Of a stretch of 32,000 bases of DNA, positions 6,028 through 24,537 are shown one piece after another; position 1 is the stretch's first letter; each line of letters starts with the position of its first letter. The notes under the pieces are model-generated. The model did no database searches, was not told where the DNA came from, and saw nothing but the letters and a program-made list of their open reading frames with translations. Position numbers and translations under genes: made by a program. This DNA is from Oryzomonas sagensis. Lineage in GTDB: Bacteria > Desulfobacterota > Desulfuromonadia > Geobacterales > Pseudopelobacteraceae. Location: positions 324,374-356,373 of the forward strand of contig NZ_VZRA01000003.1 of NCBI RefSeq assembly GCF_008802355.1, given 5' to 3'.

Positions 6028-6167
6028 TCTGCCACAGAGACACGGAGACACAGAGGTTCACAGAGGTTCACAGAGAAAATAAAAACACAGGCTTTGGGTC
6101 CATGAACAACTTATTTCGAGAATTTATGTTTTTGACTTTCTCCGTGTCTCCGTGTCTCTGTGGCAGA
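6028..6167. repeat. about 140-bp inverted-repeat element (MITE/REP-like), copy 1
   Basis: Left arm TCTGCCACAGAGACACGGAGACACAGAG and right arm CTCCGTGTCTCCGTGTCTCTGTGGCAGA are reverse complements with 1 mismatch. AT-rich core. Internal 10-bp tandem CACAGAGGTT x2.7 (6050-6076). The right end is 30/34 identical to 28233-28266. Confidence 0.8.
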
Positions 6168-6178
6168 AGTTAGTTTGT

Positions 6179-7768
6179 TTATTGCTTCGCCCTAAATCGC
6201 CACTCGCCGACATTCCCCTCGCACACCGCCGCAACACCCCGATCAGGATTGGCCGCCAGGTGCCGCAGGATGGCGAAGACCTGCTCCACCGCCTCCGGTT
6301 TGCCGAGGCTTGCGGCAATTTCGCCCGCAGTCATGGCGTTTTGCCCCTTCCCGAGCAGTCCCACGATCTCCTTTTGCAGGGCTATGACCGCACCGGCCGC
6401 CTTCTTCCCCGCCTCGACCCCGGGCTGGTGGTAGGCGTTGACATTGATCAGACTGGCGTACAGGCCGACGGCGCGCTCGAACAGGGCGATCAGGACGCCC
6501 ACCGTAAAGGCGTCGATCCGCTCCACGGTGATGGTCATGGATTCGCGCCCCTTCTCGTACAGTGCCTGGCGGGTCCCCTGGAAAAAGCCGAACAGGAAAT
6601 CTCCGCTGGTAACCCCTTCTTCCACCTGCATCGAGGGCTTTTCCCGGTCGTACAATACCTCAACGAAGGTCACGAAGAAATTGGCCACCCCCTCACGCAG
6701 CTGCTGCACATAGGCGTGCTGGTCGGTGGACCCCTTGTTGCCGTAGACCGTCATACCCTGGGTGACGATGTTCCCCCCCAGGTCCGCTTCCTTGCCGATG
6801 GACTCCATGATCAGCTGTTGCAGGTAGCGGGAGAAGAGCAGCAGACGGTCCTTGTAGGGGAGCATGACCATATCCTTCTCCCCGTGCCCGTTTGTGGCGT
6901 AGTGCCACATCAGGGCCATGAGCGCGGCGGGGTTCTGCCGGGTCTCCGTCTGGCGGGTGACGGCGTCGCAGGCCGCGGCACCGGCCAGCAGGGCCGTGAT
7001 GTCGAGCCCCTGCAAGGCTGCCGGGAGCAGGCCGACCGCAGAGGTCACGGAGGTCCGGCCGCCGACCCAGTCCCACATGGGGAAGCGGGCAATCCACCCT
7101 TCTGCGGCGGCAAGCCTGTCCAGTTCGCTTCCGGCGCCGGTCACGGCCACGGCGTGGCGGGCAAACTCCAACCCTGCGCGCCGGTAGGCGGCCTGGGTCT
7201 CCAGCATGCCGTTGCGGGTCTCCTTGGTAGAGCCGCTCTTGGAGATGACGATGGCCAGGGTGCGACCCAGGTCGTCCCCCAGTTCGGCGAACACCCGGTC
7301 CATGCCGTCGGGATCGGTGTTGTCGAGGAACGAGGGCTTCATCCGGTCACCGGACGTGCCGAGGGCCTCGGCCACGAACTGCGGTCCCAGGGCCGAACCG
7401 CCGATGCCGATGATGAGAATATTTTTAAATATCTCGTTATTTTGCGACGTTATCGTGCCAGAGTGGATGCGTTGGCTGAAGTTTTTGATCTGGTCGAGGG
7501 CCGACGCAATCTGGTCCCGGATCTCGCCGGTCGGAGCGAGGGCGGTGTTTCTCAGCCAGTAGTGCCCCACCATGCGCTGTTCGTCCGGATTGGCCACGGC
7601 GCCGGCCTCCAATTCCTTCATGGCGGTGAAGGCCCGTTGCATGGACGGTTCCATGTGATCCGGAAACGCTTCAGGGAACCCCATGCGGCTGATATCCAGA
7701 GACAACCCCAGCTTTGGACACAGGCAGAGATAGGTAGTATAACGCTTCCAAAGTGTAAGATCGCCCAT
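6179..7768 (-). CDS. pgi: glucose-6-phosphate isomerase, 529 aa
   Basis: PGI/SIS motifs [76 protein letters not shown] precedes the ATG (minus strand). Confidence 0.9.
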
Positions 7769-8034
7769 GATAACCTCCGGTTGTGGTCGTAAACGTCAGA
7801 GCCATTTTGCCCTGTCCGCACCGTTTGTCAAGTTGCCAGACCGTTTGCCCGCTGATTTGTTGCGGCCGGACAAAAAATATGCAGGGAATGTTTACTTTTA
7901 TCTTGTAACATCACGGGGTTTTTATTAGGTTCAAGGCACGAGAGGCCGCGGCCCGTCACCCGACCTCTCTCCAGGGCAATCAGGATGAGGTCACATCCGT
8001 TCTGACGGGATTGAATTCAGGATAGGGGTCTGCT

Positions 8035-11000
8035 ATGAGTAGAAAGTCCGCGACCGATACCTCCCTTCCGGCGTGTTCTGCCGAACCAGATGAACACTTA
8101 ACTGCAATACTGGATCTGGTGCAGTCCCGGACCGGGCACGATTTCAGCTCATACAAGATCAATACCATCCGAAGACGCATCGAGCGGCGCATGGCGATGA
8201 ACAATGCGCGTGGCGTTGCGGACTACCTTGCCCTCCTGAACGCTAACCCCCGGGAAGCCCATGACCTCTGCCGGGAGTTCCTGATTGGGGTGACCGGCTT
8301 CTTCCGCGACCCGGAGGCGTTTGCAATTCTTGGCCGAGAGGTGGTCCCGCGTCTCTTTGCGGGGCGGAATGCCGACGACCCGGTGCGCATCTGGCACCCC
8401 TGCTGCTCCACGGGCGAGGAGGCATACTCCATGGCCATTCTGATCAGGGAGTATCTGGAGAGCCGGAATCGCACCGCCGAGGTGCTGATCTTTGCCAGCG
8501 ACCTGGACGAGGAGGCGCTTGCCCAGGCCCGGGCCGGACAGTACTCCGAGGCCATCGAAGCGTCCGTGGGGCCGGAGAGGCTCGCGACCTGGTTTACCAG
8601 GACGAACGGCGGCTACCAGGTGGTCAGGCGCCTGCGTGAGATGGTGGTATTCGCCCACCATAGCCTGATCAAGGATCCTCCCTTTTCCCGCCTCGACCTG
8701 CTCGTCTGCCGCAACGGCCTCATCTATCTCACCTCCGACATGCAGAAGCGACTTATTCCCCTCTTCCATCAAATCCTGAAGCCGGAGGGGTTTCTGTTTC
8801 TGGGAGCGTCGGAAACGATCGGCCAGTACACCGATATGTTCATCCCGGTTCATAAGAAGTGGAAGATCTTCCAGCGTCGGGAGAGCGGTCGGTCCGGCGA
8901 AACGGTCTTCCCTTTTTCCGTTCCCGTTCCCAAACCTGCCGGAGCAACCCGCCCTTCGAAGTCTGCCGACGCCCCGGGGGATGTCTCCGCACAGCGGGCC
9001 GAGAAGATCCTCGTGGAGCGTTATGCCCCTCCCTGGGTGATGGTCAACGAGAAATATGAAGTGGTCCATGTCTCTCCCCACGCCGGCCGTTTCCTCGAAG
9101 TGCCGGTCGGCGAACCGTCTCGGGATATCCTGAAGATGGCACGGAAGTCCCTGCGGCCATCGCTGCGGGCAGCGATCCATACGGCCTTCGGCGAACAGAG
9201 GCAGGTTGTCTTCCGGGGGGTGAGGGTTGCTGACGGCGATGGGGAATCTACGGTCAATGTGCTGGTGGAGCCCCTTGTTACGGCATCGTTTGGCGTACCC
9301 CAGGCCATGGTGATCTTTGAACCGATACGTGCGCCACTTACGGCCCCGCCGGCTCCCGGAACCGAAATCGCCCCGGGCGACGACTCCTCCAAGGATGCCT
9401 TGCTACGCCAGTTGGAAGAGCAGCTGTGCATCACGCACGAACAGCTCCAGGTCACCGTCGAACAGCTCGCCACCTCAAGCGAGGGGTTCACGTCCTCCAG
9501 CGAGGAACTCATCACGATCAACGAAGAATACCAGTCGATGAACGAAGAGTTGCAGGCGACCAATGAGGAGTTGGAAACCTCGAAGGAGGAGTTGCAGGCG
9601 CTCAATGAGGAACTGCTTGCCGTCAACACCGAGTTGCAGCAGAAGGTGGAAGAGCTCAATCTGGCCAACAGCGACATGGAAAATCTCTTCGCCAGTTCCG
9701 GGATCGCGGCCATCTTTCTTGACCGGCAGCTTGCCATCAAGCGTTTTTCCCCGGCCATGGCCGCCATCTTCAGCCTGATCCCGGCCGATCTGGGGCGGCC
9801 CTTCCAGCATCTGGCGGGAAAGCTCGACTGGCCGGCGCTTTCCCGCGATGCCCTCAAGGTGCTGGGTGGGCATCCCATTGCCGAGCGGGAGGTCACCACC
9901 CTGAAAGAGGGGCGCTGTTACCTCAAACGGGTACTCCCCTATCGGAACCACGAAGGAGCCATCAATGGTATCGTCATCACCTTTGTGGATATCAGCGGAC
10001 ACAAGAAGGCCGAAGAGACGCGGGCCCGGCTGGCGGCCATTGTCGAATCATCGGATAACGCCATTATCTCCAAGGGGCTGGACGGCCGCATCAGTACCTG
10101 GAACAGCAGCGCCGAACGGCTGTTCGGCTATCCGGCGAAAGAGGTTATCGGAAAACCGATCTCGCTGCTCTTCCCTCCTGAGTTGTTGGCCGAAGAGGAG
10201 CGGATACTTGGCCGGTTGAAGGCGGGCGAGCGGATTGATCACCTGGAAACCGTGCGCCTGGCCAAGGATGGGCGGCGCATAGATGTCTCCCTGACCGCCT
10301 CGCCTGTCAGGGACGATTCGGGCAGCATCACCGGGGCATCACAGATCGTCCGGGATATCACGGAGAGAAAGAAAGAAGAGGAACAGGCGCGGCATCTCGC
10401 CTCGTTTCCGCAATTGAATCCGCACCCGGTCCTGGAAGCGGATGCATCGGGCGGCATTGTCTTTGCCAATCCGGCCGCGCAACGGTTTCTGGAGACCGTT
10501 GGGCTGGCCGGGGAGGATGCCGTTCGCTTCCTCCCCCCGGATGTCGACGAAATCCTGGCGGAGTGGGACAGGAGCAGCGAGTCGACCCTGTATCGGGAGA
10601 TTACCATCCAGGAGAGGGTCTTTGGCGAGACGATCCAATTGATCCCCCGTTTCAATGCCGTGCGCATGTATGCCCACGAAATCACCAAACGCAAGCGGGC
10701 GGAGGAAGAACTGCTCCGTGCCCACGACGAGTTGGAACACCGGGTTGCGGAACGCACCGAGGAGTTGGCGACGGCGCTTTCATCCCTGCGGAAAGAGACC
10801 AGTGAACGGCTGCACGCCCTGGAGGCCCTGCGTAAAAAGGAACAGATGCTCCTGCAGCAGAGCCGTCTGGCGGCCATGGGGGAGATGATCAACAACATCG
10901 CCCACCAATGGCGCCAGCCGCTGAACGTGCTGGGGCTTCTGGTTCAACAGATACGGCTGTTTTACGGCATGGATCAGTTCAACCAGGAGTTTCTGGACGA

Positions 11001-11532
11001 AACCGTCGGCAAGGCGATGGGATTGGTCAACCACATGTCCCAGACCATCGAAGACTTCAGAAATTTTTTCAAACCCGACAAGGAAAAGGTCGAATTTGCG
11101 ATCCGCGATGTGGTCGTCAAGACCCTGGCGCTGGTAGAGGAGAGTTTCAAAAACCAGCAGGTTGCGGTTGAGACCCAGGCGAACGCCAACCCCATGGTCT
11201 CCGGCTATCCGAACGAGTACTCCCAGGCTCTGCTGAACATCCTGCTGAACGCCAGGGATGCCTTGTTGGACAAGCGCCCCGACGACGCCAAGGTGGTGGT
11301 GACCATCGGCATGGAAGAGGGGCGCTCCATTGTGACCATCACCGACAACGCCGGCGGCATCGCCGGGGACACCATGGGCAAGATCTTCGAGCCGTATTTC
11401 ACCACCAAGGGGCCGGATAAGGGGACCGGGGTGGGGCTGTTCATGTCGAAAGCCATCATAGAAAAGAACATGAACGGCAGGCTTACGGCACGCAATATCG
11501 CCGATGGCGCGGAATTCAGGATAGAGGTTTGA
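8035..11532 (+). CDS. cytoplasmic multidomain sensor: CheR-type methyltransferase + PAS-like + NEEL coiled coil + PAS domains + histidine kinase, 1165 aa
   Basis: The N-terminus matches CheR (HDFSSYKINTIRRRIERRM, TGFFRDPEAF, VRIWHPCCSTGEEAYSMAILI, FASDLDEEAL, LLVCRNGLIYL). A NEELQATNEELETSKEELQALNEEL coiled coil follows. A clear PAS is present (IVESSDNAIISKGLDGRISTWNSSAERLFGY...). H-box NNIAHQWRQPLN and HATPase N/G boxes (LLNARDAL, DNAGGI, GTGVGLFMSK). No TM segment and no receiver domain. Confidence 0.8.
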   Translation: MSRKSATDTSLPACSAEPDEHLTAILDLVQSRTGHDFSSYKINTIRRRIERRMAMNNARGVADYLALLNANPREAHDLCREFLIGVTGFFRDPEAFAILGREVVPRLFAGRNADDPVRIWHPCCSTGEEAYSMAILIREYLESRNRTAEVLIFASDLDEEALAQARAGQYSEAIEASVGPERLATWFTRTNGGYQVVRRLREMVVFAHHSLIKDPPFSRLDLLVCRNGLIYLTSDMQKRLIPLFHQILKPEGFLFLGASETIGQYTDMFIPVHKKWKIFQRRESGRSGETVFPFSVPVPKPAGATRPSKSADAPGDVSAQRAEKILVERYAPPWVMVNEKYEVVHVSPHAGRFLEVPVGEPSRDILKMARKSLRPSLRAAIHTAFGEQRQVVFRGVRVADGDGESTVNVLVEPLVTASFGVPQAMVIFEPIRAPLTAPPAPGTEIAPGDDSSKDALLRQLEEQLCITHEQLQVTVEQLATSSEGFTSSSEELITINEEYQSMNEELQATNEELETSKEELQALNEELLAVNTELQQKVEELNLANSDMENLFASSGIAAIFLDRQLAIKRFSPAMAAIFSLIPADLGRPFQHLAGKLDWPALSRDALKVLGGHPIAEREVTTLKEGRCYLKRVLPYRNHEGAINGIVITFVDISGHKKAEETRARLAAIVESSDNAIISKGLDGRISTWNSSAERLFGYPAKEVIGKPISLLFPPELLAEEERILGRLKAGERIDHLETVRLAKDGRRIDVSLTASPVRDDSGSITGASQIVRDITERKKEEEQARHLASFPQLNPHPVLEADASGGIVFANPAAQRFLETVGLAGEDAVRFLPPDVDEILAEWDRSSESTLYREITIQERVFGETIQLIPRFNAVRMYAHEITKRKRAEEELLRAHDELEHRVAERTEELATALSSLRKETSERLHALEALRKKEQMLLQQSRLAAMGEMINNIAHQWRQPLNVLGLLVQQIRLFYGMDQFNQEFLDETVGKAMGLVNHMSQTIEDFRNFFKPDKEKVEFAIRDVVVKTLALVEESFKNQQVAVETQANANPMVSGYPNEYSQALLNILLNARDALLDKRPDDAKVVVTIGMEEGRSIVTITDNAGGIAGDTMGKIFEPYFTTKGPDKGTGVGLFMSKAIIEKNMNGRLTARNIADGAEFRIEV

Positions 11533-13136: not shown

Positions 13137-14351
13137 ATGCCGTCAGATTCCCTGGATCGTCTCACCATCGACAAATCCCGCCACCCCTCTCACAAACGGG
13201 GCGCGGGCAAGCGCACGCGTCTTTGGGGCGTTGTTTTCGTCGTGATCGCCGCCGGAGTCGTACTGCTGGCAGTGCAGAGGCGCTCCGTCTCCATCGAAAC
13301 CACCAATGTCTCCCAGGTATTTCCGACCCAGTCATTTACCCTGTTGAACGCCAGTGGATATGTGGTGGCCCAACGAAAGGCGGCGGTGGCCGCCAAGACC
13401 ACCGGCCGGTTGGAATGGCTGGGGGTCGAGGAGGGGAGCCGGGTTACGACCGGCCAGGTTATTGCCCGGCTGGAGAACAAGGACCTGGATGCGGCCGTGC
13501 GGCAGAACAAGGCGGCCGTGCAGAGCGCCCGGTCTGCACTTGACCAGGTCAAGGCGGAGCTGGTCGACGCCAAACAGGCGTACCTGCGTGAGAAGGAGTT
13601 GCTGAGCCAGGGGATCGTCGCCAAGTCCGAATACGATGCGGCCTACGCGCGCTACAAGAAGGCCGTTGCCGGCGTTGCGGAGGCGGAAGCCGGCATCCAC
13701 GTTGCCCTCGCCGCGCTGAAAGGGGCGACCGTAAGCTACGATTACAGCCTGATCCGGGCGCCGTTCGATGCCGTTGTCTTGACCAAGAATGCCGATGTGG
13801 GTGACATCATCACCCCCCTGGGGGCGGCGGCCAATGCCAAGGCGGCCGTGGTGTCCATAGCGGACCTCGGGTCGCTTGAGGTGGAGGCCGATGTCTCCGA
13901 ATCAAACCTGGCGGTGGTGAAGCCGGGGCAGCCCTGCGAGGTCACCCTGGATGCGCTGCCCAACACCCGGTTCCGCGGCGTCGTGCACACCATCGTCCCG
14001 ACGGCCGACCGCACCAAGGCCTCGGTCATGGTCAAGGTGCGCTTCGTGGACACCGATCCCCACATCTTGCCGGAGATGAGCGCCAAGGTGGCCTTCCTGG
14101 AGCGGGAAGCCCGCAAGGCGGACCAGCGGCCGCGCATCGCCGTCAAACCGTCGGCAATCGTCGCCTCCGGCGGTCGCCAGGGGGTCTATCTCGTCACGGG
14201 GGATCGCGTGGTCTTCACGCCGATTACCCGCGGCGCCCCGCTGGGCGATCTGGTGGAGGTAGGCGGGGTAAAGTCCGGCGATCGGGTCGCGCTCAAGCCC
14301 TTGGATAAACTGAAGGACGGGGCCAGGATCCGTCTGGCCGGGGAAAAATAG
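13137..14351 (+). CDS. efflux transporter periplasmic adaptor subunit (HlyD/MFP, MacA-like), 404 aa
   Basis: N-terminal TM anchor, coiled-coil hairpin (LDAAVRQNKAAVQSARSALDQVKAELVDAKQAY...), lipoyl/beta-barrel-like motifs (LIRAPFDAVVLTKNADVGD). RBS GGAGAAGG. Confidence 0.8.
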   Translation: MPSDSLDRLTIDKSRHPSHKRGAGKRTRLWGVVFVVIAAGVVLLAVQRRSVSIETTNVSQVFPTQSFTLLNASGYVVAQRKAAVAAKTTGRLEWLGVEEGSRVTTGQVIARLENKDLDAAVRQNKAAVQSARSALDQVKAELVDAKQAYLREKELLSQGIVAKSEYDAAYARYKKAVAGVAEAEAGIHVALAALKGATVSYDYSLIRAPFDAVVLTKNADVGDIITPLGAAANAKAAVVSIADLGSLEVEADVSESNLAVVKPGQPCEVTLDALPNTRFRGVVHTIVPTADRTKASVMVKVRFVDTDPHILPEMSAKVAFLEREARKADQRPRIAVKPSAIVASGGRQGVYLVTGDRVVFTPITRGAPLGDLVEVGGVKSGDRVALKPLDKLKDGARIRLAGEK

Positions 14352-14354
14352 GAA

Positions 14355-15056
14355 ATGGCCGACTCCGGGGAACGGCGGGTCGTCGTCAGTATCCGCAACG
14401 CAGCCAAGTCCTACCTGCGGGGCAGCCAGGTGGTGCCGGTTCTGGAGGATCTCTCCTTCGAGATCTTCCAGGGGGAGTTCCTGGCGCTGATGGGGCCGTC
14501 CGGGTCGGGCAAGAGCACCCTGCTCAACCTGATTGCCGGCATCGATTCGGTGGACAGTGGCGCTATCGTGGTGGATGGCGTGGATATCGCCACCCTGGGG
14601 GAACGGGAACTTGCCGACTGGCGCGCGGCCCACGTCGGCTTCATCTTCCAGTTCTACAACCTGATCCCGGTTCTGACCGCGTTTGAAAATGTGGAACTGC
14701 CGCTCCTTCTGACGCCGCTTAACCGCCGCGAACGCCGGGAGCATGTGGTGGCCGCCCTGGAGGTGGTCGGTCTGGCCGACCGCATGGAACATTACCCCTC
14801 CCAGCTTTCGGGCGGCCAGCAACAACGGGTCGCCATCGCCCGGGCCGTGGTGAGCGACCCCTCCATTCTGGTGGCCGACGAACCGACCGGCGATCTGGAC
14901 CGGGTTTCCGCCGAGGAGATCCTGCACCTGATGACGCACCTGAACAGCGCGTTCGGCAAGACGATCATCATGGTCACCCACGACCCCCGCGCCGCCGAGA
15001 AGGCCCATACCGTCAGGCACCTGGAAAAGGGCGTGTTGAGCGATGTTCCTTCTTAA
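14355..15056 (+). CDS. ABC transporter ATP-binding protein (MacB/LolD family), 233 aa
   Basis: Walker A GPSGSGKST, Q-loop, signature LSGGQQQRVAIARA, Walker B ILVADEPTGDLD, H-loop VTHD. Confidence 0.88.
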   Translation: MADSGERRVVVSIRNAAKSYLRGSQVVPVLEDLSFEIFQGEFLALMGPSGSGKSTLLNLIAGIDSVDSGAIVVDGVDIATLGERELADWRAAHVGFIFQFYNLIPVLTAFENVELPLLLTPLNRRERREHVVAALEVVGLADRMEHYPSQLSGGQQQRVAIARAVVSDPSILVADEPTGDLDRVSAEEILHLMTHLNSAFGKTIIMVTHDPRAAEKAHTVRHLEKGVLSDVPS

Positions 15057-16200
15057 GCTGCTTACCAGGAACGCCCTGCGCCACCATCTGCGCACCGGGC
15101 TCACCATTCTGGGAATCACCATCGCCATCCTGGCTTTCGGCCTGCTGCGGACGGTGGTCAGCGCCTGGTATGCCGGGGTCAACGCCTCGTCGGCCGCGCG
15201 GCTGATCTCGCGCAACGCCATCTCCCTGACCTTTTCCCTGCCCCTTTCCTATCTGGAGCGGATCAGACAGGTGGAGGGGGTCAAGTCGGTTTCCTATGCC
15301 AACTGGTTCGGGGGCATCTACATCACGGAAAAGAACTTTTTCCCGAATTTTGCCGTGGAGCCGAAAAGCTATTTCGAGTTGTATCCCGAATTCGTGCTCG
15401 CTCCCGAAGACAAACGGGCCTTTCTGGCCGACCGCAAGGGGTGTGTGGTCGGACGGAGACTGGCCGAGCGCTTCGGCTGGAAGGTGGGCGACAATATCAC
15501 GCTCAAGGGCACCATCTTTCCCGGCACATGGGAATTCGTCCTGCGCGGCATCTATCGCGGCGCGGAGAAGTCCACCGATGAGAACCAGTTCTTCTTTCAG
15601 TGGGACTATCTGAACGAGACCCTGAAGAAGACGGCCGCGCGCCGGGCCGACCAGCTCGGCGTCATCATCCTGGGGCTGAAAAACCCGCAAACAGCGGCGG
15701 AGACCTCCCTGGCGGTGGATGCGCGGTTCAGGAACTCCCTGGCCGAAACCCTGACCGAGACGGAAAAGGCCTTCCAGCTCAGCTTCGTCTCCATGACCGA
15801 GGCCATTGTTGTGGCCATCCGTATCGTGTCGTACGTGGTGATCGTCATCATCATGGCGGTGGTAGCCAATACCATGGCCATGACCGCCCGGGAGCGGATC
15901 GGCGAGTATGCCATCTTCAAGGCCCTGGGCTTTCGCGGGTACTACATTGCCGGCATGGTGTTCGGCGAGTCGTTGTTTATCGCCATGACCGGCTGTGCGG
16001 CCGGCATTGTCCTGACCTTTCCGGTGGCCGCCAGGTTCGGCAAGGTCATGGGTGCGTTCTTTCCCGTATTCCAGGTCGAGCGTTCAACCCTGTACCTGGA
16101 CGTGGTCTTCTGCCTGGTGGTCGGCCTGGTGGCGGCCGTTTTTCCCACCTGGCGGGCGGTCAGGATCGGGATTGCCGACGGCTTGCGCAGGATCGGATAG
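15043..16200 (+). CDS. ABC transporter permease, FtsX/MacB-type with periplasmic domain, 385 aa
   Basis: One TM, then a roughly 200-aa periplasmic domain, then three C-terminal TMs (FtsX fold pattern). ATG overlaps the ATPase stop by 14 nt. Confidence 0.8.
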   Translation: MFLLKLLTRNALRHHLRTGLTILGITIAILAFGLLRTVVSAWYAGVNASSAARLISRNAISLTFSLPLSYLERIRQVEGVKSVSYANWFGGIYITEKNFFPNFAVEPKSYFELYPEFVLAPEDKRAFLADRKGCVVGRRLAERFGWKVGDNITLKGTIFPGTWEFVLRGIYRGAEKSTDENQFFFQWDYLNETLKKTAARRADQLGVIILGLKNPQTAAETSLAVDARFRNSLAETLTETEKAFQLSFVSMTEAIVVAIRIVSYVVIVIIMAVVANTMAMTARERIGEYAIFKALGFRGYYIAGMVFGESLFIAMTGCAAGIVLTFPVAARFGKVMGAFFPVFQVERSTLYLDVVFCLVVGLVAAVFPTWRAVRIGIADGLRRIG

Positions 16201-16440: not shown

Positions 16441-17808
<1,368 letters not shown>

Positions 17809-17811
<3 letters not shown>

Positions 17812-17919: not shown

Positions 17920-17935
17920 TGGCCTTCGATTTGCA
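17920..17935 (+). promoter_or_regulatory. sigma-54 (RpoN) -24/-12 promoter of the pilin operon
   Basis: TGGCCttcgatTTGCA. GG and GC are exactly 12 nt apart, as in TGGCAC-N5-TTGC. Predicted TSS is about 17946, 56 nt upstream of the pilin ATG. Confidence 0.75.
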
Positions 17936-18001: not shown

Positions 18002-18220
18002 ATGCTACAAAAAATGAAAAACAGAAAAGGCTTCACCCTGATCGAACTGCTGATCGTTGTTGCGATCATCGGTATCCTGGCTGCTATCGCCATCCCGCAG
18101 TTTAACGCGTATCGTCAAAAAGCTTACAACAGTGCTGCATCAAGCGATCTGAAAAACACGAAAACAGCGCTTGAATCCGTTATGGCAGATGCCCAGAAGT
18201 ACCCAACCAATCTCCAGTAA
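18002..18220 (+). CDS. pilA: truncated type IVa pilin, Geobacter PilA-N type (72-aa prepilin, 62-aa mature)
   Basis: MLQKMKNRKG/FTLIELLIVVAIIGILAAIAIPQF...: class III leader, G-1/F+1/E+5. Near-identical over most of its length to my recollection of G. sulfurreducens PilA. No globular C-terminal domain. RBS AGGGGA. Confidence 0.9.
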   Translation: MLQKMKNRKGFTLIELLIVVAIIGILAAIAIPQFNAYRQKAYNSAASSDLKNTKTALESVMADAQKYPTNLQ

Positions 18221-18250
18221 ATTTAATAATACGATGAAAGGGGCGTTCTA

Positions 18251-18625
18251 ATGAAAAGGAAAATCTTCGCAATGGCCGGACTTGTAGCCATGATAATGTC
18301 AAATGCTTCTCTGACATTAGCTGCTGCTGCAGCAGCAGGGAGTGAATTTGTTGCGGCGGCTGGAGCTTCAATCCAGTACAGTGTCGATGGTACAAATTAT
18401 AAAGATCTTGCCAAGCTGTCGAACAACGTGATTTTGCATTGCTTTATCAATTCTACCTCAGACCAATACTCGATAACATCGAAGCATACTCAGTCTGTTC
18501 GCGAGTACGGCACCTCTTCTCAAGATACCAAGATGTATTATCATGAACTTTCCACTGCTTCCACAGGTATGACCGGTCTTAATGCAGCTGATACCAGCCA
18601 GATGACCTCGTGGACATCTATGTAG
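18251..18625 (+). CDS. secreted Ser/Thr-rich protein, PilA-C-like partner of the short pilin, 124 aa
   Basis: Sec signal peptide MKRKIFAMAGLVAMIMSNASLTLA/AA. Located 30 nt after pilA-N with its own RBS (GAAAGGGG) and no intervening terminator. Assignment is by position (split-pilin synteny) only. Confidence 0.55.
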   Translation: MKRKIFAMAGLVAMIMSNASLTLAAAAAAGSEFVAAAGASIQYSVDGTNYKDLAKLSNNVILHCFINSTSDQYSITSKHTQSVREYGTSSQDTKMYYHELSTASTGMTGLNAADTSQMTSWTSM

Positions 18626-18644
18626 CATCTCCTTCCTACACCGT

Positions 18645-18674
18645 AACGGGATGCTTCGGCATCCCGTTTTTTTT
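18645..18674 (+). terminator. Rho-independent terminator after the pilin pair
   Basis: AACGGGATGC-ttcg-GCATCCCGTT followed by TTTTTT. The U-tract ends at the GGAG RBS of the next gene. Confidence 0.85.
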
Positions 18675-18685
18675 GGAGTTTCTTT

Positions 18686-20410
18686 GTGCAAAACCCTGCC
18701 GCTAGGATTCGAAATCAATCTCTCCTTATCATCATTATCCTGCTGAGCAGTTATTACCCCTCACTCTTTGCCCCCTTTAATTCCGTAGATGACGTCAAAA
18801 TGGTCAACCAGCTCATCAACGTTGACACCATTTCCCTTAAAGGTTTGTTCTTTCCCGGCGCCGGCGGACAATACTACCGTCCCCTGTTATTCCTCACGTT
18901 TCTGTTTGATAAATTCGTCTGGGGGGTGCAGGAAAGTTTCATGCACCTGGAGAATGTTTTATTTCATCTTGTCAATACTCTGCTGGTTTTTTGTCTTGCC
19001 CGGCAGTTCATAAAAGCATGGCGTTGGGATACGCAATATTTCCCTTTTGTTGTTGCCCTGCTGTTTGGTCTCCATCCCATAGCCACCGAACCGGTCAACT
19101 GGGTATCCGGGCGTACAGACCTCCTGGCCGGGGTATTCGTCCTCTCGGCAGTTTTGTTATTCACGCGGTCGATTCATATATCATCCTTTTGGCAAGGGGG
19201 TGCAGGTGCTTTCCTCTTACTGTGCGGGTGTCTATCAAAAGAAACCGCCCTGTTTGTTCTTCCGGTTCTATTGTTATGGTGCCTTGTCCCGCCACGAGAT
19301 TATGCCTGCATGGCTTCAGGACGCCTGCGGGCGTTTCTTTTTGCATCGTACCTCGCGTCAGGTTTTGCTTATTTGGTGATGCGTTGGTATGCCTTAAACG
19401 GTGGCGACAAGATTGTCAGTACCATGGCGAGTGGGGCAAGTAGTTCCGGTGCTGCGTTTGGCATATGGGACATGATTCGGGTCGGTCTCAAAACATCCGG
19501 TTTTTATTGTAAAAAACTGGTCGTACCCTTTCCGCTCAACTTCGGAATTATTGAAATATCGCCCCATTATATCTGGTTGGGGCTTCTGGTGTGTGTAGGG
19601 GGCTGTTATTGCCTGTATGCACGTACTACGGTCTCTTACCTTTTTATTGCCGCTTTTTGTCTGGTATCGCCCGCCTTTATTGTACCGCTGTTAAAGATTA
19701 CGTGGACCCCGGTCGCCGAACGGTATGCGTATATTGCTTCCGCACCCTTCCTCGTCGCTCTCTCGTTTCTGTTTATCCGCTGTTTGCGATCACGTTTGCC
19801 GCCCCTGGCAATTACGTTCTTTGTGGCCATTCTGCTCTTTTGTTCAGGTTTTGCCACAATCAAACGCAATGTCGTTTGGCAGGATAATGTATCATTGTTT
19901 GAAGATACCGTAAAAAAATCCCCCAATTTTCCGGCAGCAAAAAATGAGCTGGCTATTGCCCTAGTTGGCAGAGGAAAAACCGACGAGGCCAATAAGATAT
20001 TGCTTGCCAACAGCGGAGACGATACCCAGCCCTCATCCATAAATAAAATCAAGGTTGCCGTGAACAACGGCAGGTATGAGGAAGCATACAGGATGATGGG
20101 GGAGCGGAAAGCAAGAGGGGGGAAGGAGGACAAGGATTCCCTGGATCTTATGTACCTGATCAACGAACAACGGTTCATAGCTTCAAAAAGCGAGAGCCAG
20201 TCCCGGAAAATACGCATGGAAATGCTTACAATCCTGGGGAATCTTCATTCACTGTCGGGAGATCCGGTGTATTTCTACCGGATTGGACTGGTGCAATTAC
20301 GACTGGGGAACAGATTGGCTGCCAAACAATCTTTTGAGAGCGCATGGCGGAATTCAGCGCCAGACTGTTATTATCATAATGCCGCCAAGAAGCTTGCAGA
20401 GAGCTTGTGA
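18686..20410 (+). CDS. polytopic membrane protein with C-terminal TPRs, TMTC/PMT-like (GT-C fold) putative glycosyltransferase, 574 aa
   Basis: GTG start 7 nt after GGAG. The N-terminal pattern FNSVDDV...L..LFFPGAGGQYYRPLLFLTFLFDKFVWG...FMHLENVLFHLVNTLLVFCLAR matches the conserved loop-1 DD / YYRPL / H-x-N-x-x-x-H pattern of bacterial TMTC-like TPR proteins as I remember it. About 10 or more TM helices. The C-terminal 170 aa are soluble and TPR-like. Confidence 0.55.
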   Translation: MQNPAARIRNQSLLIIIILLSSYYPSLFAPFNSVDDVKMVNQLINVDTISLKGLFFPGAGGQYYRPLLFLTFLFDKFVWGVQESFMHLENVLFHLVNTLLVFCLARQFIKAWRWDTQYFPFVVALLFGLHPIATEPVNWVSGRTDLLAGVFVLSAVLLFTRSIHISSFWQGGAGAFLLLCGCLSKETALFVLPVLLLWCLVPPRDYACMASGRLRAFLFASYLASGFAYLVMRWYALNGGDKIVSTMASGASSSGAAFGIWDMIRVGLKTSGFYCKKLVVPFPLNFGIIEISPHYIWLGLLVCVGGCYCLYARTTVSYLFIAAFCLVSPAFIVPLLKITWTPVAERYAYIASAPFLVALSFLFIRCLRSRLPPLAITFFVAILLFCSGFATIKRNVVWQDNVSLFEDTVKKSPNFPAAKNELAIALVGRGKTDEANKILLANSGDDTQPSSINKIKVAVNNGRYEEAYRMMGERKARGGKEDKDSLDLMYLINEQRFIASKSESQSRKIRMEMLTILGNLHSLSGDPVYFYRIGLVQLRLGNRLAAKQSFESAWRNSAPDCYYHNAAKKLAESL

Positions 20411-20528
20411 TAATAACGGTGGCAAGGTATACTAATAAAATTTTTATAAGCCTCTCATCCCTGACGGATCGATGAATTTGTAGGGGCGTTTTCTTGTCCA
20501 TGAATTTTACCAAGGAGACCAGACCAAT

Positions 20529-21323
20529 ATGATGAATGTCATTCTTGTTACCCTGAAAGGGGTTTTCCGTGACCGTGTTTTCTTGGGGATTGCGGCTCTA
20601 TTGGTGCTGTTTCTGTTCATTCCATCCGCTGCATCTCTGTCAATGCGTCAGGTGACGGAACTATCCGTCACGCTGTCATTATCGCTTATTTCCTTTATCT
20701 TGTTATTGCTGGCGGTTTTTTTGGGTGCAACTTCCATTTGGAGGGATATGGAGCGACGCTATACCTTTAGCGTTCTCAGTCTTCCGATCAATCGCAGTTT
20801 CTACTTGTTTGGACGTTTTTTCGGTCTGGCTCTGTTTCTGGTTCTTACTTCCGCAGCACTGGGGGCGGTCACGTGTTTGGTGGTTAAGGTAACGTCGGGC
20901 ATCTACCCCCCTGATCGGCCAATCATATTGGGGTATTTGGCATTAGCTGTTATATTTGCCACCCTCAAATATATTCTGTTGATTTCTGTGGCTATTTTGT
21001 TATCAACCGTCAGCACCTCCTTCTTTTTGCCGATCTTCGGTACCATTTGTGTTTTTATCGCTGGCGGCATAACGCAGCAAGTGTACGAATATATTAACTC
21101 GCCTGTAGCACAGACAGCTATTTCACCCGTTTTCAAAATAGCAGCGACAGCGGTATATTATCTCCTACCAAATTTGGCTGGTTTTGATCTGAAGGTAAAT
21201 GCCATTTATAGTATTGCACCTGATCCGCGGGGATTATGTATGACATTCGCCTATTTCCTGGCCTATACTGCCATTTTATTGGGTTGTGCGTCATTGCTGT
21301 TCAGCCGGAGGGAGTTAAAGTGA
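20529..21323 (+). CDS. ABC-2 type (NosY/COG1277-like) transporter permease, 264 aa
   Basis: RBS AAGGAGA. Six predicted TM helices with a loop after TM1. No soluble domains. An ABC ATPase lies two genes downstream. Confidence 0.6.
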   Translation: MMNVILVTLKGVFRDRVFLGIAALLVLFLFIPSAASLSMRQVTELSVTLSLSLISFILLLLAVFLGATSIWRDMERRYTFSVLSLPINRSFYLFGRFFGLALFLVLTSAALGAVTCLVVKVTSGIYPPDRPIILGYLALAVIFATLKYILLISVAILLSTVSTSFFLPIFGTICVFIAGGITQQVYEYINSPVAQTAISPVFKIAATAVYYLLPNLAGFDLKVNAIYSIAPDPRGLCMTFAYFLAYTAILLGCASLLFSRRELK

Positions 21324-22195
21324 CCCGCGATATAACGCCTGTCAGTCTGGTGATCGCAGGTTTACTTGTCTATAGCCTTCTCGTTTGCCCTTTCACTGAC
21401 TATATGCGTAACAAGCCGATTGAAGAAAAACTTGGCTTCGTGCCAAGCGTTAAGTTGCTGAAACCGTTGAGCGTTGACCAGAAGGAGTTGGTTGGAGCCT
21501 CGCTGGCCATGAAGGTGCTGATGTATTATGGCGGCGTTCTCGACAAAATGCAGGGCAGCAAGGTAATTGCCGAATCACCGGATCTTCAGGGAATGTCCCG
21601 GCTGCTTCATGGCGCGGTGCAGCTCGATCCATATAATATGGATGCCTACTATTTCGCACAGGGTTTTCTAACGTGGGATGCCCAACAATTCAACGTGGCC
21701 AACAACATGCTCCAATACGGTATGAAATATCGCACCTGGGATTGGTATCTACCGTTTTACGCTGGTTTTAATTACGCCTATTTTTTGAAGGACTTCAAAA
21801 AAGCCGCGGAATACTACAGCAAGGCTGGAGAACTGTCCGGCCAGGAATTGCATATCAACCTCGCGGGCAGATACCTGCAAGAGTCAGGACAGACAAGTCT
21901 TGCTATCGGGTATCTTAGGGCAATGATTGCGACCTCGCGCAACGAAACGGCACGAAAATCATTCGGAACGAGACTTAAGGCCTTTGAGGGCGTGCGAAAA
22001 ATAGAAATCGCCCGCGACCGTTTTCGGGAAAAGCAGGGACGAGAACCCTTTTCGGTGGCGGAATTGTTCAAATCGGGTTTTTTGGAAGCATTGCCCAGTG
22101 ATCCCTATGGAGGGCAGTTTTATTTACAGTCCGACGGCACAGTCGCAACGACAAGTAAGTTTGCGTTCCCGCAAGCAAAAAAGGGAGTTAAGTGA
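21320..22195 (+). CDS. membrane-anchored helical-repeat (TPR-like) protein with GspG/pseudopilin-like C-terminal motif, 291 aa
   Basis: GTG at 21320 (RBS GGAGGGA, GTGA overlap with the permease stop) is preferred over the track's ATG at 21236. N-terminal TM VSLVIAGLLVYSLLVCPF. TPR-like FKKAAEYYSKAGEL. The C-terminus KQGREPFSVAELFKSGFLEALPSDPYGGQFYLQSDGTV resembles the T2SS GspG motif (G-YP...L...GYL..LP-DPWG--Y-Y). Confidence 0.5.
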   Translation: MTRDITPVSLVIAGLLVYSLLVCPFTDYMRNKPIEEKLGFVPSVKLLKPLSVDQKELVGASLAMKVLMYYGGVLDKMQGSKVIAESPDLQGMSRLLHGAVQLDPYNMDAYYFAQGFLTWDAQQFNVANNMLQYGMKYRTWDWYLPFYAGFNYAYFLKDFKKAAEYYSKAGELSGQELHINLAGRYLQESGQTSLAIGYLRAMIATSRNETARKSFGTRLKAFEGVRKIEIARDRFREKQGREPFSVAELFKSGFLEALPSDPYGGQFYLQSDGTVATTSKFAFPQAKKGVK

Positions 22196-23109
22196 TGAAC
22201 ATGCTGGATATCCGCGGATTGTCAAAAACATTTATTGGCAAGCGTCGGCTGCGTATTGAAGCGCTCAGGAATCTCACACTCTCCATAACGCAAGGCGAAA
22301 TCTTCGGCTTCCTCGGCCCCAACGGCGCGGGTAAGAGTACGACCATCAAGTGCCTGATGGGGCTGATCCGGCCGACGGCCGGCACGGCAACCATCATGGG
22401 CGAGCCGATCGGCAGCGTTGCGTCCCGGACTAAAATCGGTTTCCTGCCCGAGAACCCGGCCTTTTACGATTATCTATCCGCCGAGGAGTACCTCCGGTTT
22501 GTGGGCAAGACGTTCAAGATGCCGGAAGACCTCCTGGACCGCCGCTCGGACGAAACGCTGAAGCAGCTTGAACTGTGGGATGCCCGCAAACGTCCCATGC
22601 GCGGCTACAGCAAGGGGATGGTGCAGCGGGTCGGGCTGGCGCAAGCCTTGATCCACGATCCCGACCTGTATATCCTGGACGAGCCCATGAGCGGGCTCGA
22701 CCCCATCGGCAGGGCGTTGGTGAAGGATATTATTCTCGACCTGAAGAAGCGGGGCAAGAGTGTCTTCTTCAGCACCCACATCACCGATGATGTGGAAAAG
22801 GTCTGCGACAGGGTAGGGGTGATCGTCAAAGGCCAGCTCGAGGCCCTGGACAGCGTCGAGAATATCGTGCGGCAAGGGATCGAAGGGTACATCGTGCAGA
22901 CCCGGCTGAACCAGGGAAACCACGAGCCTTTGGCCGGCTTTGCCGTCACGCGCACGAATGAAACCTTTATCGAGTACTTTGTGCCGGTGGCGGGCTTCAA
23001 TGAATTCATGGCGCTGGCCGGCCGGCATTCGGTGGAGGTTACCCTGGTCGAAACAAAACGCAAGGATCTTGAGAGCTTCTTCCTGGGAATCGTGGAAAAG
23101 AGGAAATAG
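22192..23109 (+). CDS. ABC transporter ATP-binding protein (ABC-2/CcmA-type), 305 aa
   Basis: Walker A GPNGAGKST, signature variant YSKGMVQRVGLAQAL, Walker B LYILDEPMSGLD, H-loop STHI, plus a roughly 80-aa C-terminal extension. The start may be GTG 22192, ATG 22195 or ATG 22201. Confidence 0.85.
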   Translation: MMNMLDIRGLSKTFIGKRRLRIEALRNLTLSITQGEIFGFLGPNGAGKSTTIKCLMGLIRPTAGTATIMGEPIGSVASRTKIGFLPENPAFYDYLSAEEYLRFVGKTFKMPEDLLDRRSDETLKQLELWDARKRPMRGYSKGMVQRVGLAQALIHDPDLYILDEPMSGLDPIGRALVKDIILDLKKRGKSVFFSTHITDDVEKVCDRVGVIVKGQLEALDSVENIVRQGIEGYIVQTRLNQGNHEPLAGFAVTRTNETFIEYFVPVAGFNEFMALAGRHSVEVTLVETKRKDLESFFLGIVEKRK

Positions 23110-23344: not shown

Positions 23345-23800
23345 ATGAATAGAGAACAGGGGCGCGACATCCTCAAACGGCTGAATATGAAGGTCACTCC
23401 CAAGCGGCTGGAGGTTATGTGTTGCCTGGGGAGCGAACCGCTCTACCTCTCCGCCGATGAGGTCTGGCACCGCATCAAGGACCGGGTGGCCAGCATCGGG
23501 CTGCCCACGGTGTACCGCATCCTCGATGAACTGGCCGAGGCCGGCGTCATTACCCGCATCTTCCTGGCCGACCGCAAGCAGTACTATTTTCTCTGCGCCA
23601 ATCAGGACCACCACCATCACCATTTTGTCTGCGAGTCCTGTCGGCGGGTGGAGGACCTGGGGCAGTGCGCGCTCGGCGAGGGGACACTCGATGCGGTCCA
23701 GCGTTCGGGCGGGCGGGTAACGTCCCATATCCTTCAGATCAATGGGGTGTGCGCTACCTGCAGCACCCCGCGTGGAGGGGCGGCATGCCGGACGAAATAG
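23345..23800 (+). CDS. zur: Fur-family metalloregulator, probably Zur, 151 aa
   Basis: Winged-helix N-terminus (KVTPKRLEVMCCL...SADEVWHRI...GLPTVYRILDELAEAGVI). HHHHHFVCESC and VCATC provide the metal-binding and structural CxxC pairs. Sits directly upstream of ZnuC/ZnuB-like genes. Confidence 0.7.
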   Translation: MNREQGRDILKRLNMKVTPKRLEVMCCLGSEPLYLSADEVWHRIKDRVASIGLPTVYRILDELAEAGVITRIFLADRKQYYFLCANQDHHHHHFVCESCRRVEDLGQCALGEGTLDAVQRSGGRVTSHILQINGVCATCSTPRGGAACRTK

Positions 23801-24537
23801 TCAGGACGGAGCGGCTCTGTTGCAGTTACCGGACAGGCCGGGTGCTGGAGGATATTTCCATTTCGGTGGAGGCGGGCGATTACGTCGGGATTGTCGGCCC
23901 CAACGGCTCGGGCAAGAGCACGCTGGTGCGCGCACTGATGGGATTAAGCGCCATCAGCGACGGCACCGCCTCCCTGTTCGGCGTGCCGTGCAGCCGTTTC
24001 AACGCTTGGGGCCGGATCGGGTATCTCCCCCAAAGCCTGCATCTGCTCAACCCCATATTCCCGGCCACCGTGGCCGAAACGGTCGGACTCGGCCTCCTGT
24101 CGTTGAAGCGCTTCCCCCGCCGGTTGACCGCTGCCGACAGAACGAAGGTCGATGCCGTTCTCGAACAATTGGATATTTGCGATATAAAATCTAAACTGAT
24201 AGGTGAACTTTCCGGCGGTCAGCAACAGCGCGTTCTTCTGGCCCGCGCCCTGGTCAACGACCCGGATCTGCTGATCCTGGACGAGCCGACTGCGGCGCTC
24301 GACCCCGAGATGCGCGAACGCTTCTATTCCCTGATGGGAGAGATAAACCGTTCCCGGCAGGTTACGGTGCTGCTGGTGACCCATGATACCGGCGCCATCG
24401 GGAAATACGCCTCGAAGATGCTGTATCTGGATAAGCGTATGCTCTTTTACGGCAATTTCGAGGAATTCTGCCGCTCCACGGATATGTCCGCCCTGTTTGG
24501 CGAGTATTCCCAACACCTGATGTGCCACAGGCATTAA
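23785..24537 (+). CDS. znuC: zinc/metal ABC transporter ATP-binding protein, 250 aa
   Basis: ATG at 23785 (RBS GGAGGGG) is preferred to the track's 23665. Walker A GPNGSGKST, LSGGQQQRVLLARAL, LLILDEPTAALD, VTHD. Confidence 0.75.
   Translation: MPDEIVRTERLCCSYRTGRVLEDISISVEAGDYVGIVGPNGSGKSTLVRALMGLSAISDGTASLFGVPCSRFNAWGRIGYLPQSLHLLNPIFPATVAETVGLGLLSLKRFPRRLTAADRTKVDAVLEQLDICDIKSKLIGELSGGQQQRVLLARALVNDPDLLILDEPTAALDPEMRERFYSLMGEINRSRQVTVLLVTHDTGAIGKYASKMLYLDKRMLFYGNFEEFCRSTDMSALFGEYSQHLMCHRH

Follow-up and report, generated by a model that had tools for sequence, protein, structure and literature searches.

A PilI-PilG-PilH type ABC module and a GT-C fold protein within an exchangeable pilin cassette of Oryzomonas sagensis

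What appears to be one set of ABC (ATP-binding cassette) transporter genes is known under two names, as PilGHI in Myxococcus, where it is needed for pili, and as XapD in Geobacter, where it is assigned to the export of exopolysaccharide (EPS). Which of these two functions should be expected when such genes follow a pilin gene is the question raised by a 32,000-nucleotide stretch of the Oryzomonas sagensis genome (contig NZ_VZRA01000003.1, positions 324,374 to 356,373; hereafter, the window), in which an earlier note, made from the letters of the DNA, had described four co-oriented genes directly downstream of a PilA-N/PilA-C pair. The open reading frames (ORFs) confirm their coordinates and strand, and the genes are called here G1, G2, G3 and G4 in the order in which they occur (Table 1). 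All four are real genes and not chance ORFs, because G1 and G3 have 100%-identical NCBI entries in O. sagensis (F6V30_12390 and F6V30_12400, respectively) and hundreds of homologues, and because G2 and G4 match Pfam families. The last three overlap, as had been described: when the junctions are read directly, G2 and G3 share GTGA (21320-21323) and G3 and G4 share GTGATG (22192-22197), while G1 and G2 are separated by 118 nt. The answer that we favour, to which we would give a probability of roughly one half, is that G1 glycosylates pilin and that the three genes after it act on pilins or on the pilus rather than exporting EPS.

From their domain content and gene order, G2, G3 and G4 (hereafter, the trio) are assigned to the PilI-PilG-PilH type of ABC module that belongs to Myxococcus/Geobacter-type type IVa pili (T4aP). 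The proposed arrangement of a permease and an ATPase separated by an anchored helical-repeat protein is borne out, as G2 matches ABC2_membrane_2 (PF12679; E 8.8e-8), G3 carries a transmembrane (TM) helix and tetratricopeptide repeats (TPRs) with no matching family in Pfam or NCBIfam, and G4 matches ABC_tran (E 3.4e-29), its nucleotide-binding domain (NBD) being followed by a C-terminal extension of ~75 aa. As tabulated in the supplement of Sharma et al. (2018), the corresponding locus of G. sulfurreducens KN400 comprises PilA (N_methyl), two hypothetical proteins, PilI (ABC2_membrane_2), PilG (no domain) and PilH (ABC_tran), and the gene order and Pfam content of the window are those of this block, in the order GSU1496-1501. 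Within Geobacteraceae, conservation of the same family is 63-70%. By this table, G2-G4 would correspond to GSU1499-1501, PilH would be XapD (GSU1501) and G1 would occupy the position of GSU1498, so that the link to xapD suggested in the earlier note holds at the level of published synteny. By contrast, the view that this is an undescribed system has to be abandoned: modules of this poorly understood PilGHI/XapD kind were described in 1998, and the G. sulfurreducens genes were labelled by Sharma et al. in 2018. The present contribution lies in bringing both literatures together, dissecting PilG into its domains, relating the trio to NosFY, showing its modular pairing with different transferases and documenting the exchange of the cassette between species.

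The M. xanthus genes pilA, pilG, pilH and pilI make up a single operon, in which PilH is the ABC ATPase, PilI the permease and PilG an “accessory factor” (Wu et al. 1998, in the passages of PMC3724824 and PMC3546991 that cite it). In both loci, the major pilin gene of a T4aP is neighboured by genes for an ABC ATPase, a permease of the ABC2_membrane_2 family and an accessory protein to which no domain is assigned. However, the order is permease-accessory-ATPase in the window and accessory-ATPase-permease in M. xanthus, the pilin of the window is split into PilA-N plus PilA-C, and a gene coding for a protein with a glycosyltransferase C (GT-C) fold and TPRs stands between the pilins and the trio. 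The two arrangements are connected by a Myxococcus-type metagenomic locus (L084) that contains two full-length PilA, a gene in the PilG position, an ABC_tran ATPase, an ABC-2 permease, MBOAT, AlgX and PilD. Its PilAs match typeIV_PilA_Myxo end to end (E 5e-52), and all three products of the trio resemble their counterparts there (G3, 30% over 171 aa, E 3e-14; G2, E 5e-14; G4, 52% identity, E 7e-70), although the protein in the PilG position lacks the DPYGG motif described below and the homology is measured to L084. A lookup by exact sequence of ten high-GC-looking representatives, aimed at the PilG of M. xanthus, returned Dissulfurirhabdus and Desulfuromonadales names and no Myxococcus.

According to the literature, PilGHI is needed for piliation, S motility and EPS in M. 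xanthus. Deletion of the pilGHI cluster abolishes both S motility and EPS, and the pilG, pilH and pilI deletions are EPS-negative, which is explained, in a passage citing Wu et al. (1998), by the absence of pilins and pili. In fact, a pilB Walker-A allele suppresses the EPS defect of the pilG/H/I mutants, from which it follows that this defect is indirect. In Geobacter papers up to 2026, GSU1501 has been termed xapD and regarded as an EPS exporter, and no paper in the literature searched names “xapD” and “pilH” together. If the Geobacter annotation were right, XapD and its partners would export an anchoring polysaccharide that G1 builds or attaches, and the adjacency of pilA would be incidental. 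EPS is indeed reduced by about half in the xapD mutant, which is also impaired in anchoring cytochromes, growing on electrodes and reducing Fe(III) oxides, and GSU1498-1508 have been counted as a polysaccharide cluster in G. sulfurreducens. Nevertheless, the genes after PilH in the KN400 table code for UbiA, GT2, Wzm, Wzt (with Wzt_C) and FkbM, that is, a textbook Wzm/Wzt exporter is found three genes downstream, whereas the cluster of the window ends at the ATPase and, after a gap of 235 nt, is followed by Fur/Zur, znuC-like and znuB-like genes (zur-znuCB), with none of UbiA, GT2, Wzm, Wzt or FkbM beside the trio and no polysaccharide genes in the window. Additionally, G2 belongs with ABC2_membrane_2 and NosY and does not match the Wzm-type permease family PF01061, nor is there a Wzm structure among its profile matches, and no Wzt_C was found in G4 by the Pfam scan. 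As the trio also accompanies pilin genes across phyla (see below) and the EPS loss of the M. xanthus mutants is suppressible, the export of a matrix polysaccharide, one of the functions suggested in the earlier note, is the least supported reading and very unlikely, and the accepted “Xap” polysaccharide-exporter label is probably wrong.

The nearest structural relatives of the trio are found in NosDFY, the system for N2O-reductase maturation of Pseudomonas stutzeri (PDB 7o0y). Although a single-sequence PDB search with G2 gave nothing, the profile of its family had NosY (7o0y_D; E 1.2e-8) as its sole meaningful match, and the alignment covers the full length (residues 3-261 versus 6-274). For G4, the best bacterial match in the PDB is NosF (7o0y_B; 4e-40), and the best overall are the NBDs of ABCA1/3/4/7, while in NCBIfam it falls in a DrrA/GldA/NodI-like group, under every equivalog cut-off; GldAFG, DrrAB and NodIJ were rejected as the family of the trio, their scores being far under the cut-offs. 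Both systems thus combine an ABC-2 transporter with a presumably periplasmic accessory protein, but this protein is a beta-helix in NosD and a bitopic, TPR/GspG-like protein in G3. Moreover, the window has no nos genes, there are no copper chaperones nearby, and the genomic context is one of pilins.

The family of G3 is large and tightly conserved, and amounts to 1833 matches in the 90% collection and, at 50% identity, to 1288 clusters (E<=1e-3) or 519 (E<=1e-10), nearly all of 270-300 aa. The AlphaFold2 model (pLDDT 77) consists of an N-terminal TM helix, TPR-like helices (residues 89-205), a long helix (209-239) and two strands. While searches with the whole protein retrieve TPR proteins, the profile of the C-terminal ~85 residues (A8) has seven GspG structures as its top matches in the PDB (E 2.9e-5 to 6.4e-3), in agreement with the “pseudopilin-like” description that had been given to this protein. 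The last ~60 residues align with GspG/PulG, the pseudopilin of type II secretion, from the alpha1C helix through the strand region, where the near-invariant P-x-DPYGG-x-FY of G3, whose DPYGG is the most conserved part of the family, is aligned with the P-x-DPWG-x-Y of GspG; the Pfam family T2SSG is matched by 9 of 64 single sequences of the G3 family (best, 4.7e-3). Unlike GspG, G3 has a TPR domain between the TM helix and the head and is missing the long GspG loop. Its N terminus (MTRDITPVSLVIAGLL...) has neither a prepilin leader nor the G-F-x-x-x-E motif and does not match N_methyl, and polymerisation of G3 is not expected. From these profiles, PilG can be described as a predicted TM anchor followed by TPRs and a GspG-pseudopilin-like head, and it looks like a pilin binder or mimic. 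The conserved surface of PilG would be rich in aromatic and acidic residues, as is often the case in sugar-binding sites.

G1 had been called a TMTC-like GT-C protein with C-terminal TPRs. On its own, it gives a weak match to TPR_19 (E 5e-4) in Pfam, none in NCBIfam, none to PMT_2 or DUF1736 at E<=0.1, and nothing in a single-sequence PDB search; among 40 homologues, TPR families are matched by 36, PMT_2 by 13 (best, 1e-7) and DUF1736 by none. The AlphaFold2 model obtained with these homologues (pLDDT 88.3, pTM 0.82) contains ~12 membrane helices and helical repeats at residues 401-573, which form the C-terminal TPR domain (residues ~401-574). When this model was compared with the PDB by Foldseek, the GT-C enzymes STT3 (6ezn_F, E 3e-4), PglB, Pmt4 (9i5k) and AftD (6w98) were retrieved with a probability of 1.0 and E values of 3e-4 to 5e-3, although with modest TM-scores of ~0.4, and the C-terminus matched TPR proteins. 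Directly after TM1, the pair D35-D36 is invariant in the 40 homologues, down to 37% identity. The GT-C-like fold and the TPR tail are, thus, well founded. As for the likeness to TMTC1-4 and the PMT O-mannosyltransferases, it holds for the architecture (GT-C domain, acidic pair in the first loop, C-terminal TPRs and fold match to Pmt4) and fails for the family, G1 being a bacterial protein without DUF1736 and without a direct PMT_2 match. The model consequently places G1, by predicted fold, as a GT-C protein of TMTC-like architecture outside the TMTC/DUF1736 family, and, from the context of UbiA and GT2 genes in related loci, it may use a polyprenyl-phosphate-linked donor on the periplasmic face. 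A common origin of the TPR domain of G1 and of G3 by duplication was rejected, as there is no detectable relation between them (E 1.6).

In Pseudomonas aeruginosa, the pilin islands carry comparable transferases, namely, TfpW (GT-C, D-arabinofuranose) and TfpO/PilO (a Wzy_C O-oligosaccharyltransferase). Both situations have a polytopic transferase gene directly downstream of pilA in a horizontally exchanged pilin cassette; loci related to that of the window add a UbiA-type polyprenyl-phosphate phosphoglycosyltransferase, as the D-Araf pathway does, and distant ones have Wzy_C in the same position. G1 differs from these enzymes in its C-terminal TPR domain, and the likeness comes from gene position and architecture. 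In contrast to the Pseudomonas systems, glycosylation of Geobacter pilins is not reported in the literature searched.

The conservation of the neighbourhood, which the earlier note had suggested examining, was followed in the best 80 of 385 loci from a genome scan with the closer G3 alignment (A4), all of them from Geobacterales. The trio is kept in this order: G2 precedes G3 in 78/78 loci, G4 comes after them in 64/69, and pilA-N lies upstream of the trio within 5 kb in 40/65. The G1-like gene is found either upstream of G2, as in the window, or downstream of G4. Among the 52 loci with enough flanking DNA, which are phylogenetically related, so that the statistics are indicative only, a G1-like gene adjoins the trio in 32 of the 33 that are linked to a pilin and in 2 of the 19 that are not (Fisher 1.3e-10, with non-independent loci). 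Similarly, UbiA is present in 27/33 pilin-linked and 5/19 pilin-less loci, accompanied by GT2 in 28 of these 32, and UbiA (30) and GT2 (26) were the commonest families when 112 downstream neighbours were scanned with Pfam.

These counts bear on the possibility that G1 glycosylates some other envelope target (for instance, OmcS/OmcE filaments, lipopolysaccharide or EPS) and travels with the pilin cassette only because surface genes tend to cluster. It has been reported that OmcS and OmcE filaments are glycosylated and that Desulfuromonadia genomes carry several GT39/TPR genes; G1 itself has many paralogue-like relatives at ~40% identity, and a terminator-like hairpin stands between pilA-C and G1. 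However, G1-like genes adjoin the trio in nearly all pilin-linked loci and in few pilin-less ones, OmcE has a separate glycosylation gene cluster of its own, the exchange between species takes in G1 along with the pilin's variable half (see below), and PMT or Wzy_C enzymes come directly after the pilin genes in distant loci. Consequently, another target for G1 is considered unlikely.

Six distant loci, from Deferribacteraceae and metagenome contigs (25-43% identity to G3), extend the comparison. Prepilin genes stand beside the trio in 6/6, while the neighbouring enzyme changes: there is none in the Deferribacteraceae locus (L081), Wzy_C in a locus that runs on with pilD and pilMNOPQ, a PMT together with a G1-like TPR protein in another, Wzy_C with a Wzx-type flippase and glycan-synthesis genes in L085, and MBOAT with AlgX in L084. 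The trio is, therefore, the constant, pilin-linked core, and the periplasmic-face transferase a variable add-on. Since, in addition, G2 and G3 are adjacent in 78/78 of the closer loci, the link between the trio and pilins is ancient.

Some of these loci show peculiarities of their own. In L084 (4219-6797), the interval from the ABC permease to pilD is occupied by a DltB-like MBOAT and a protein with an AlgX domain, which hints at O-acylation, not glycosylation, of a pilus-related substrate. In Geotalea toluenoxydans JCM 15764 (L023:10876-13440), the ORF of the PilH-type ATPase reads into the downstream G1-like GT-C/TPR gene, giving a product of 855 aa that is either a natural fusion or an error of the draft assembly. 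One metagenome-assembled genome (JAYTVV01; L026 and L047) carries two PilI-PilG-PilH copies, one directly behind pilA-N and a G1-like gene and the other with pilA-N and G1-like genes 4-10 kb away. Finally, a pilin-less trio (L033:3142-8868, minus strand) stands divergently beside split transketolase genes, a 652-aa protein without Pfam match and an epimerase-GT2 fusion, a neighbourhood that may represent another lipid-linked sugar module.

Further evidence for a connection with the pilin comes from the comparison between the window and the DNA of Oryzomonas japonica (L053). The two are 93-95% identical up to position 18130 and from 22291 on, and 64-70% identical or unalignable in between. The breakpoints fall in conserved sequence, in codon 43 of pilA-N and in codon 33 of G4, just before Walker A. 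Within this 4.2-kb segment, the proteins of both species are 36% (G1), 59% (G2) and 57% (G3) identical, whereas the flanking ones are 96-99% identical. The GC content of the segment is 47%, compared with 61% for the rest of the window, and the 14-point trough coincides with it (45-49% over 18-22 kb, versus ~60% elsewhere). The G3 type of the window is also found in O. rubra (G3 96%) and in Geobacter sp. FeAm09 (G3 86%, G1 75% identity). Between Oryzomonas species, the variable half of the pilin, PilA-C, G1, PilI and PilG are thus inherited and replaced as one unit. Pilin islands of Pseudomonas are likewise exchanged as units. This joint swap argues that these proteins are functionally matched to the pilin.

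A low GC content was rejected as a general signature of the trio, because the difference between the trio and its flanks has a median of only -1.3 points over 72 loci; as the dip is not general, in the O. sagensis genome it marks a recent import. In most of these 72 related loci, the G2-G3 pair has a GC content of 43-53%, while that of the host flanks goes from 40 to 65%, which suggests either that the module has moved horizontally more than once or that its composition is strongly constrained.

We propose that the four genes would form two functional units within one exchangeable pilin cassette of a Geobacter/Myxococcus-type T4aP locus. In the first, the D35-D36 loop and the TPR domain of G1 would face the periplasm, where the enzyme would transfer a sugar from a polyprenyl-phosphate carrier onto the pilin encoded by the two upstream genes. 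The likeliest acceptor would be the PilA-C-like protein, a candidate by its composition, as Ser and Thr make up 29% of its mature part against a background of 10.5%. In relatives, the UbiA and GT2 enzymes encoded after the cluster would supply the carrier-linked sugar, and, for the window, such genes would be located elsewhere in the genome. G1 would, in this way, be an analogue of the TfpW of Pseudomonas group IV pilins.

In the second unit, ATP-driven movements of a PilH2-PilI2 core would be passed from PilI to PilG, as from NosFY to NosD, and the pilin-mimicking head and the TPRs of PilG would bind membrane-embedded pilins or the base of the pilus, keeping pilins stable and competent for modification and assembly. 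The losses of EPS and cytochrome anchoring in mutants would then be downstream effects of a pilus defect and not the result of failed polysaccharide export. In its full form, this proposal would make PilG-PilH-PilI an ABC machine that resembles NosDFY in mechanotransduction and has protein, not a transported solute, as its object, with a pseudopilin-mimicking TPR adaptor that stabilises pilins, presents them or hands them over to modification enzymes and the assembly platform. Such a machine would represent a type IV pilus assembly factor of a new class, and XapD would then be a component of the pilus, with its EPS and anchoring phenotypes indirect. We advance this full form tentatively and hold it to be less likely than not. 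Mechanotransduction has a precedent, as NosY is the sole solved relative of PilI and NosF the best bacterial match of PilH. We favour a NosDFY-like arrangement because the trio is independent of which donor pathway is present, because it is found together with other, dedicated flippases or exporters (Wzm/Wzt in G. sulfurreducens, Wzx in L085), and because mutants of M. xanthus are said to lack pilins and pili.

The main rival is the flipping of a lipid-linked donor. According to it, PilI-PilG-PilH would export a polyprenyl-phosphate sugar or an undecaprenyl-diphosphate glycan to the periplasmic face, where G1 or Wzy_C would use it for pilin modification, with PilG either accepting the lipid-linked sugar or passing it on. 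Polyprenyl-linked substrates are indeed moved by ABC-2 (type V) exporters, Wzm/Wzt and TarGH among them. The affinity of the G4 NBD to ABCA lipid transporters and the possibly sugar-site-like surface of PilG would suit this role, as would the genomic context: in the majority of pilin-linked Geobacterales loci, the trio is flanked by genes for GT-C, UbiA and GT2, and no GtrA- or ArnEF-type flippase gene was seen in these clusters. However, conservation of the trio is just as high in loci that have no glycosylation gene next to it (as in the Myxococcus-type arrangement, in the Deferribacteraceae locus L081 and in T. lovleyi, L012), L085 carries a Wzx-type flippase of its own beside the trio, the cluster of G. 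sulfurreducens also contains a separate Wzm/Wzt pair, NosY, the nearest solved permease, is not a lipid exporter, and donor-synthesis genes are not near the trio in the window. On balance, we regard donor flipping as somewhat unlikely.

Several observations weigh against a pilus-centred function of these genes or qualify it. The link between the window and GSU1498-1501 comes from a published table, in which the “PilG” labels are partly positional, and the link to the PilG of M. xanthus goes through a single intermediate locus, L084. In 16 of 65 trio loci, there is no prepilin gene or motif within 10 kb. The xapD mutant was first reported to be still piliated, although this was disputed. Neither a PilI-PilG complex nor pilin binding nor a glycosylated Geobacter pilin has been shown in the literature searched, and the sole PilA modification found reported is a glycerophosphate on Tyr32, which is not expected from a GT-C enzyme. 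In the window, the strong terminator-like hairpin that separates the pilin genes from G1 means that its co-transcription with them is not assured. Hydropathy left the number of TM helices of G1, and hence the side of the membrane on which its TPR domain lies, unsettled. Finally, the proximity of the G4 NBD to ABCA lipid transporters suits a lipid-linked substrate as well as mechanotransduction.

If the trio does act on the pilus, the xapD phenotypes, which have been used to support a redox-active polysaccharide matrix in extracellular electron transfer, would have to be reinterpreted as pilus or secretion defects, and this would bear on the long dispute over the function of Geobacter pili. The function of PilGHI gains testable structural hypotheses, namely, a core resembling NosFY and, on PilG, a head like that of GspG. 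Additionally, the combination of GT-C, UbiA and GT2 flags a likely route of pilin glycosylation, and the exchange of a pilin cassette between species is comparable to that of the Pseudomonas pilin islands.

The features of the locus are collected in Table 1. In the mechanical ORF list, G3 begins at an upstream ATG and has 319 aa; the GTG start was adopted here. PilA-N matches N_methyl (E 1.7e-11), and its top match in NCBIfam is typeIV_PilA_Myxo. The pilA-C-like product has weak homologues (28-32%) at the same position in 5 related loci. The pattern TGGC-N7-TTGCW occurs twice in the window, compared with 0.62 expected matches, and the copy that adjoins pilR, a consensus match only, is the promoter-like element of the table.

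Table 1. Features of the pilin locus of the window (positions are those of the 32,000-nucleotide stretch)
Feature	Position	Strand	Description
pilR-like gene	16441..17811	+	putative sigma-54 enhancer-binding response regulator, 456 aa; in related loci, the gene preceding pilA-N shares 60-96% identity with it
Promoter-like element, sigma-54 type (-24/-12)	17920..17935	+	TGGCCTTCGATTTGCA; 67 nt upstream of pilA-N
pilA-N	18002..18220	+	truncated type IVa major prepilin, 72 aa; mature form 62 aa; Tyr32 conserved
Exchangeable low-GC cassette	18131..22290		4.2 kb; 3' half of pilA-N, pilA-C, G1, G2, G3 and first ~32 codons of G4
pilA-C-like gene	18251..18625	+	secreted protein, 124 aa; signal peptide; same position as GSU1497/PilA-C
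Terminator-like hairpin	18645..18678 (hairpin 18645-18668)	+	10-bp stem with 6 GC pairs, then T run; between pilA-C and G1
G1	18686-20410	+	574 aa; GTG start, GGAG 6 nt upstream
G2	20529-21323	+	PilI-type ABC-2 permease, 264 aa
G3	21320-22195	+	PilG-type accessory protein, 291 aa from GTG
G4	22192/22195-23109	+	PilH-type ABC ATPase, 305/304 aa

Apart from these features, no RNA family (Rfam) was found anywhere in the window, and some of the surrounding genes may be mentioned. Directly upstream of pilR, at 13137-16200, there is a MacAB-like set formed by an HlyD-family adaptor, an ABC ATPase and a MacB/FtsX permease, whose ATPase and permease are conserved in this place in 11 related loci, with 72-97% identity; unlike in G. 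sulfurreducens, pilS, pilB, pilT and pilC are not found in this region. At 6152-7792, long ORFs are present on both strands (546 aa on the plus and 529 aa on the minus strand), the product of the former having no Pfam match at E<=1e-5. A 1165-aa protein in which a CheR methyltransferase is fused to several PAS domains and to the ATPase domain of a histidine kinase is encoded at 8035-11532. Downstream of the cluster (region 23345-24537), there is an overlap between the Fur/Zur-family gene (23345-23800) and the znuC-like ORF in its long form, which begins with a GTG at 23665, and the true start of znuC is probably later than this codon.

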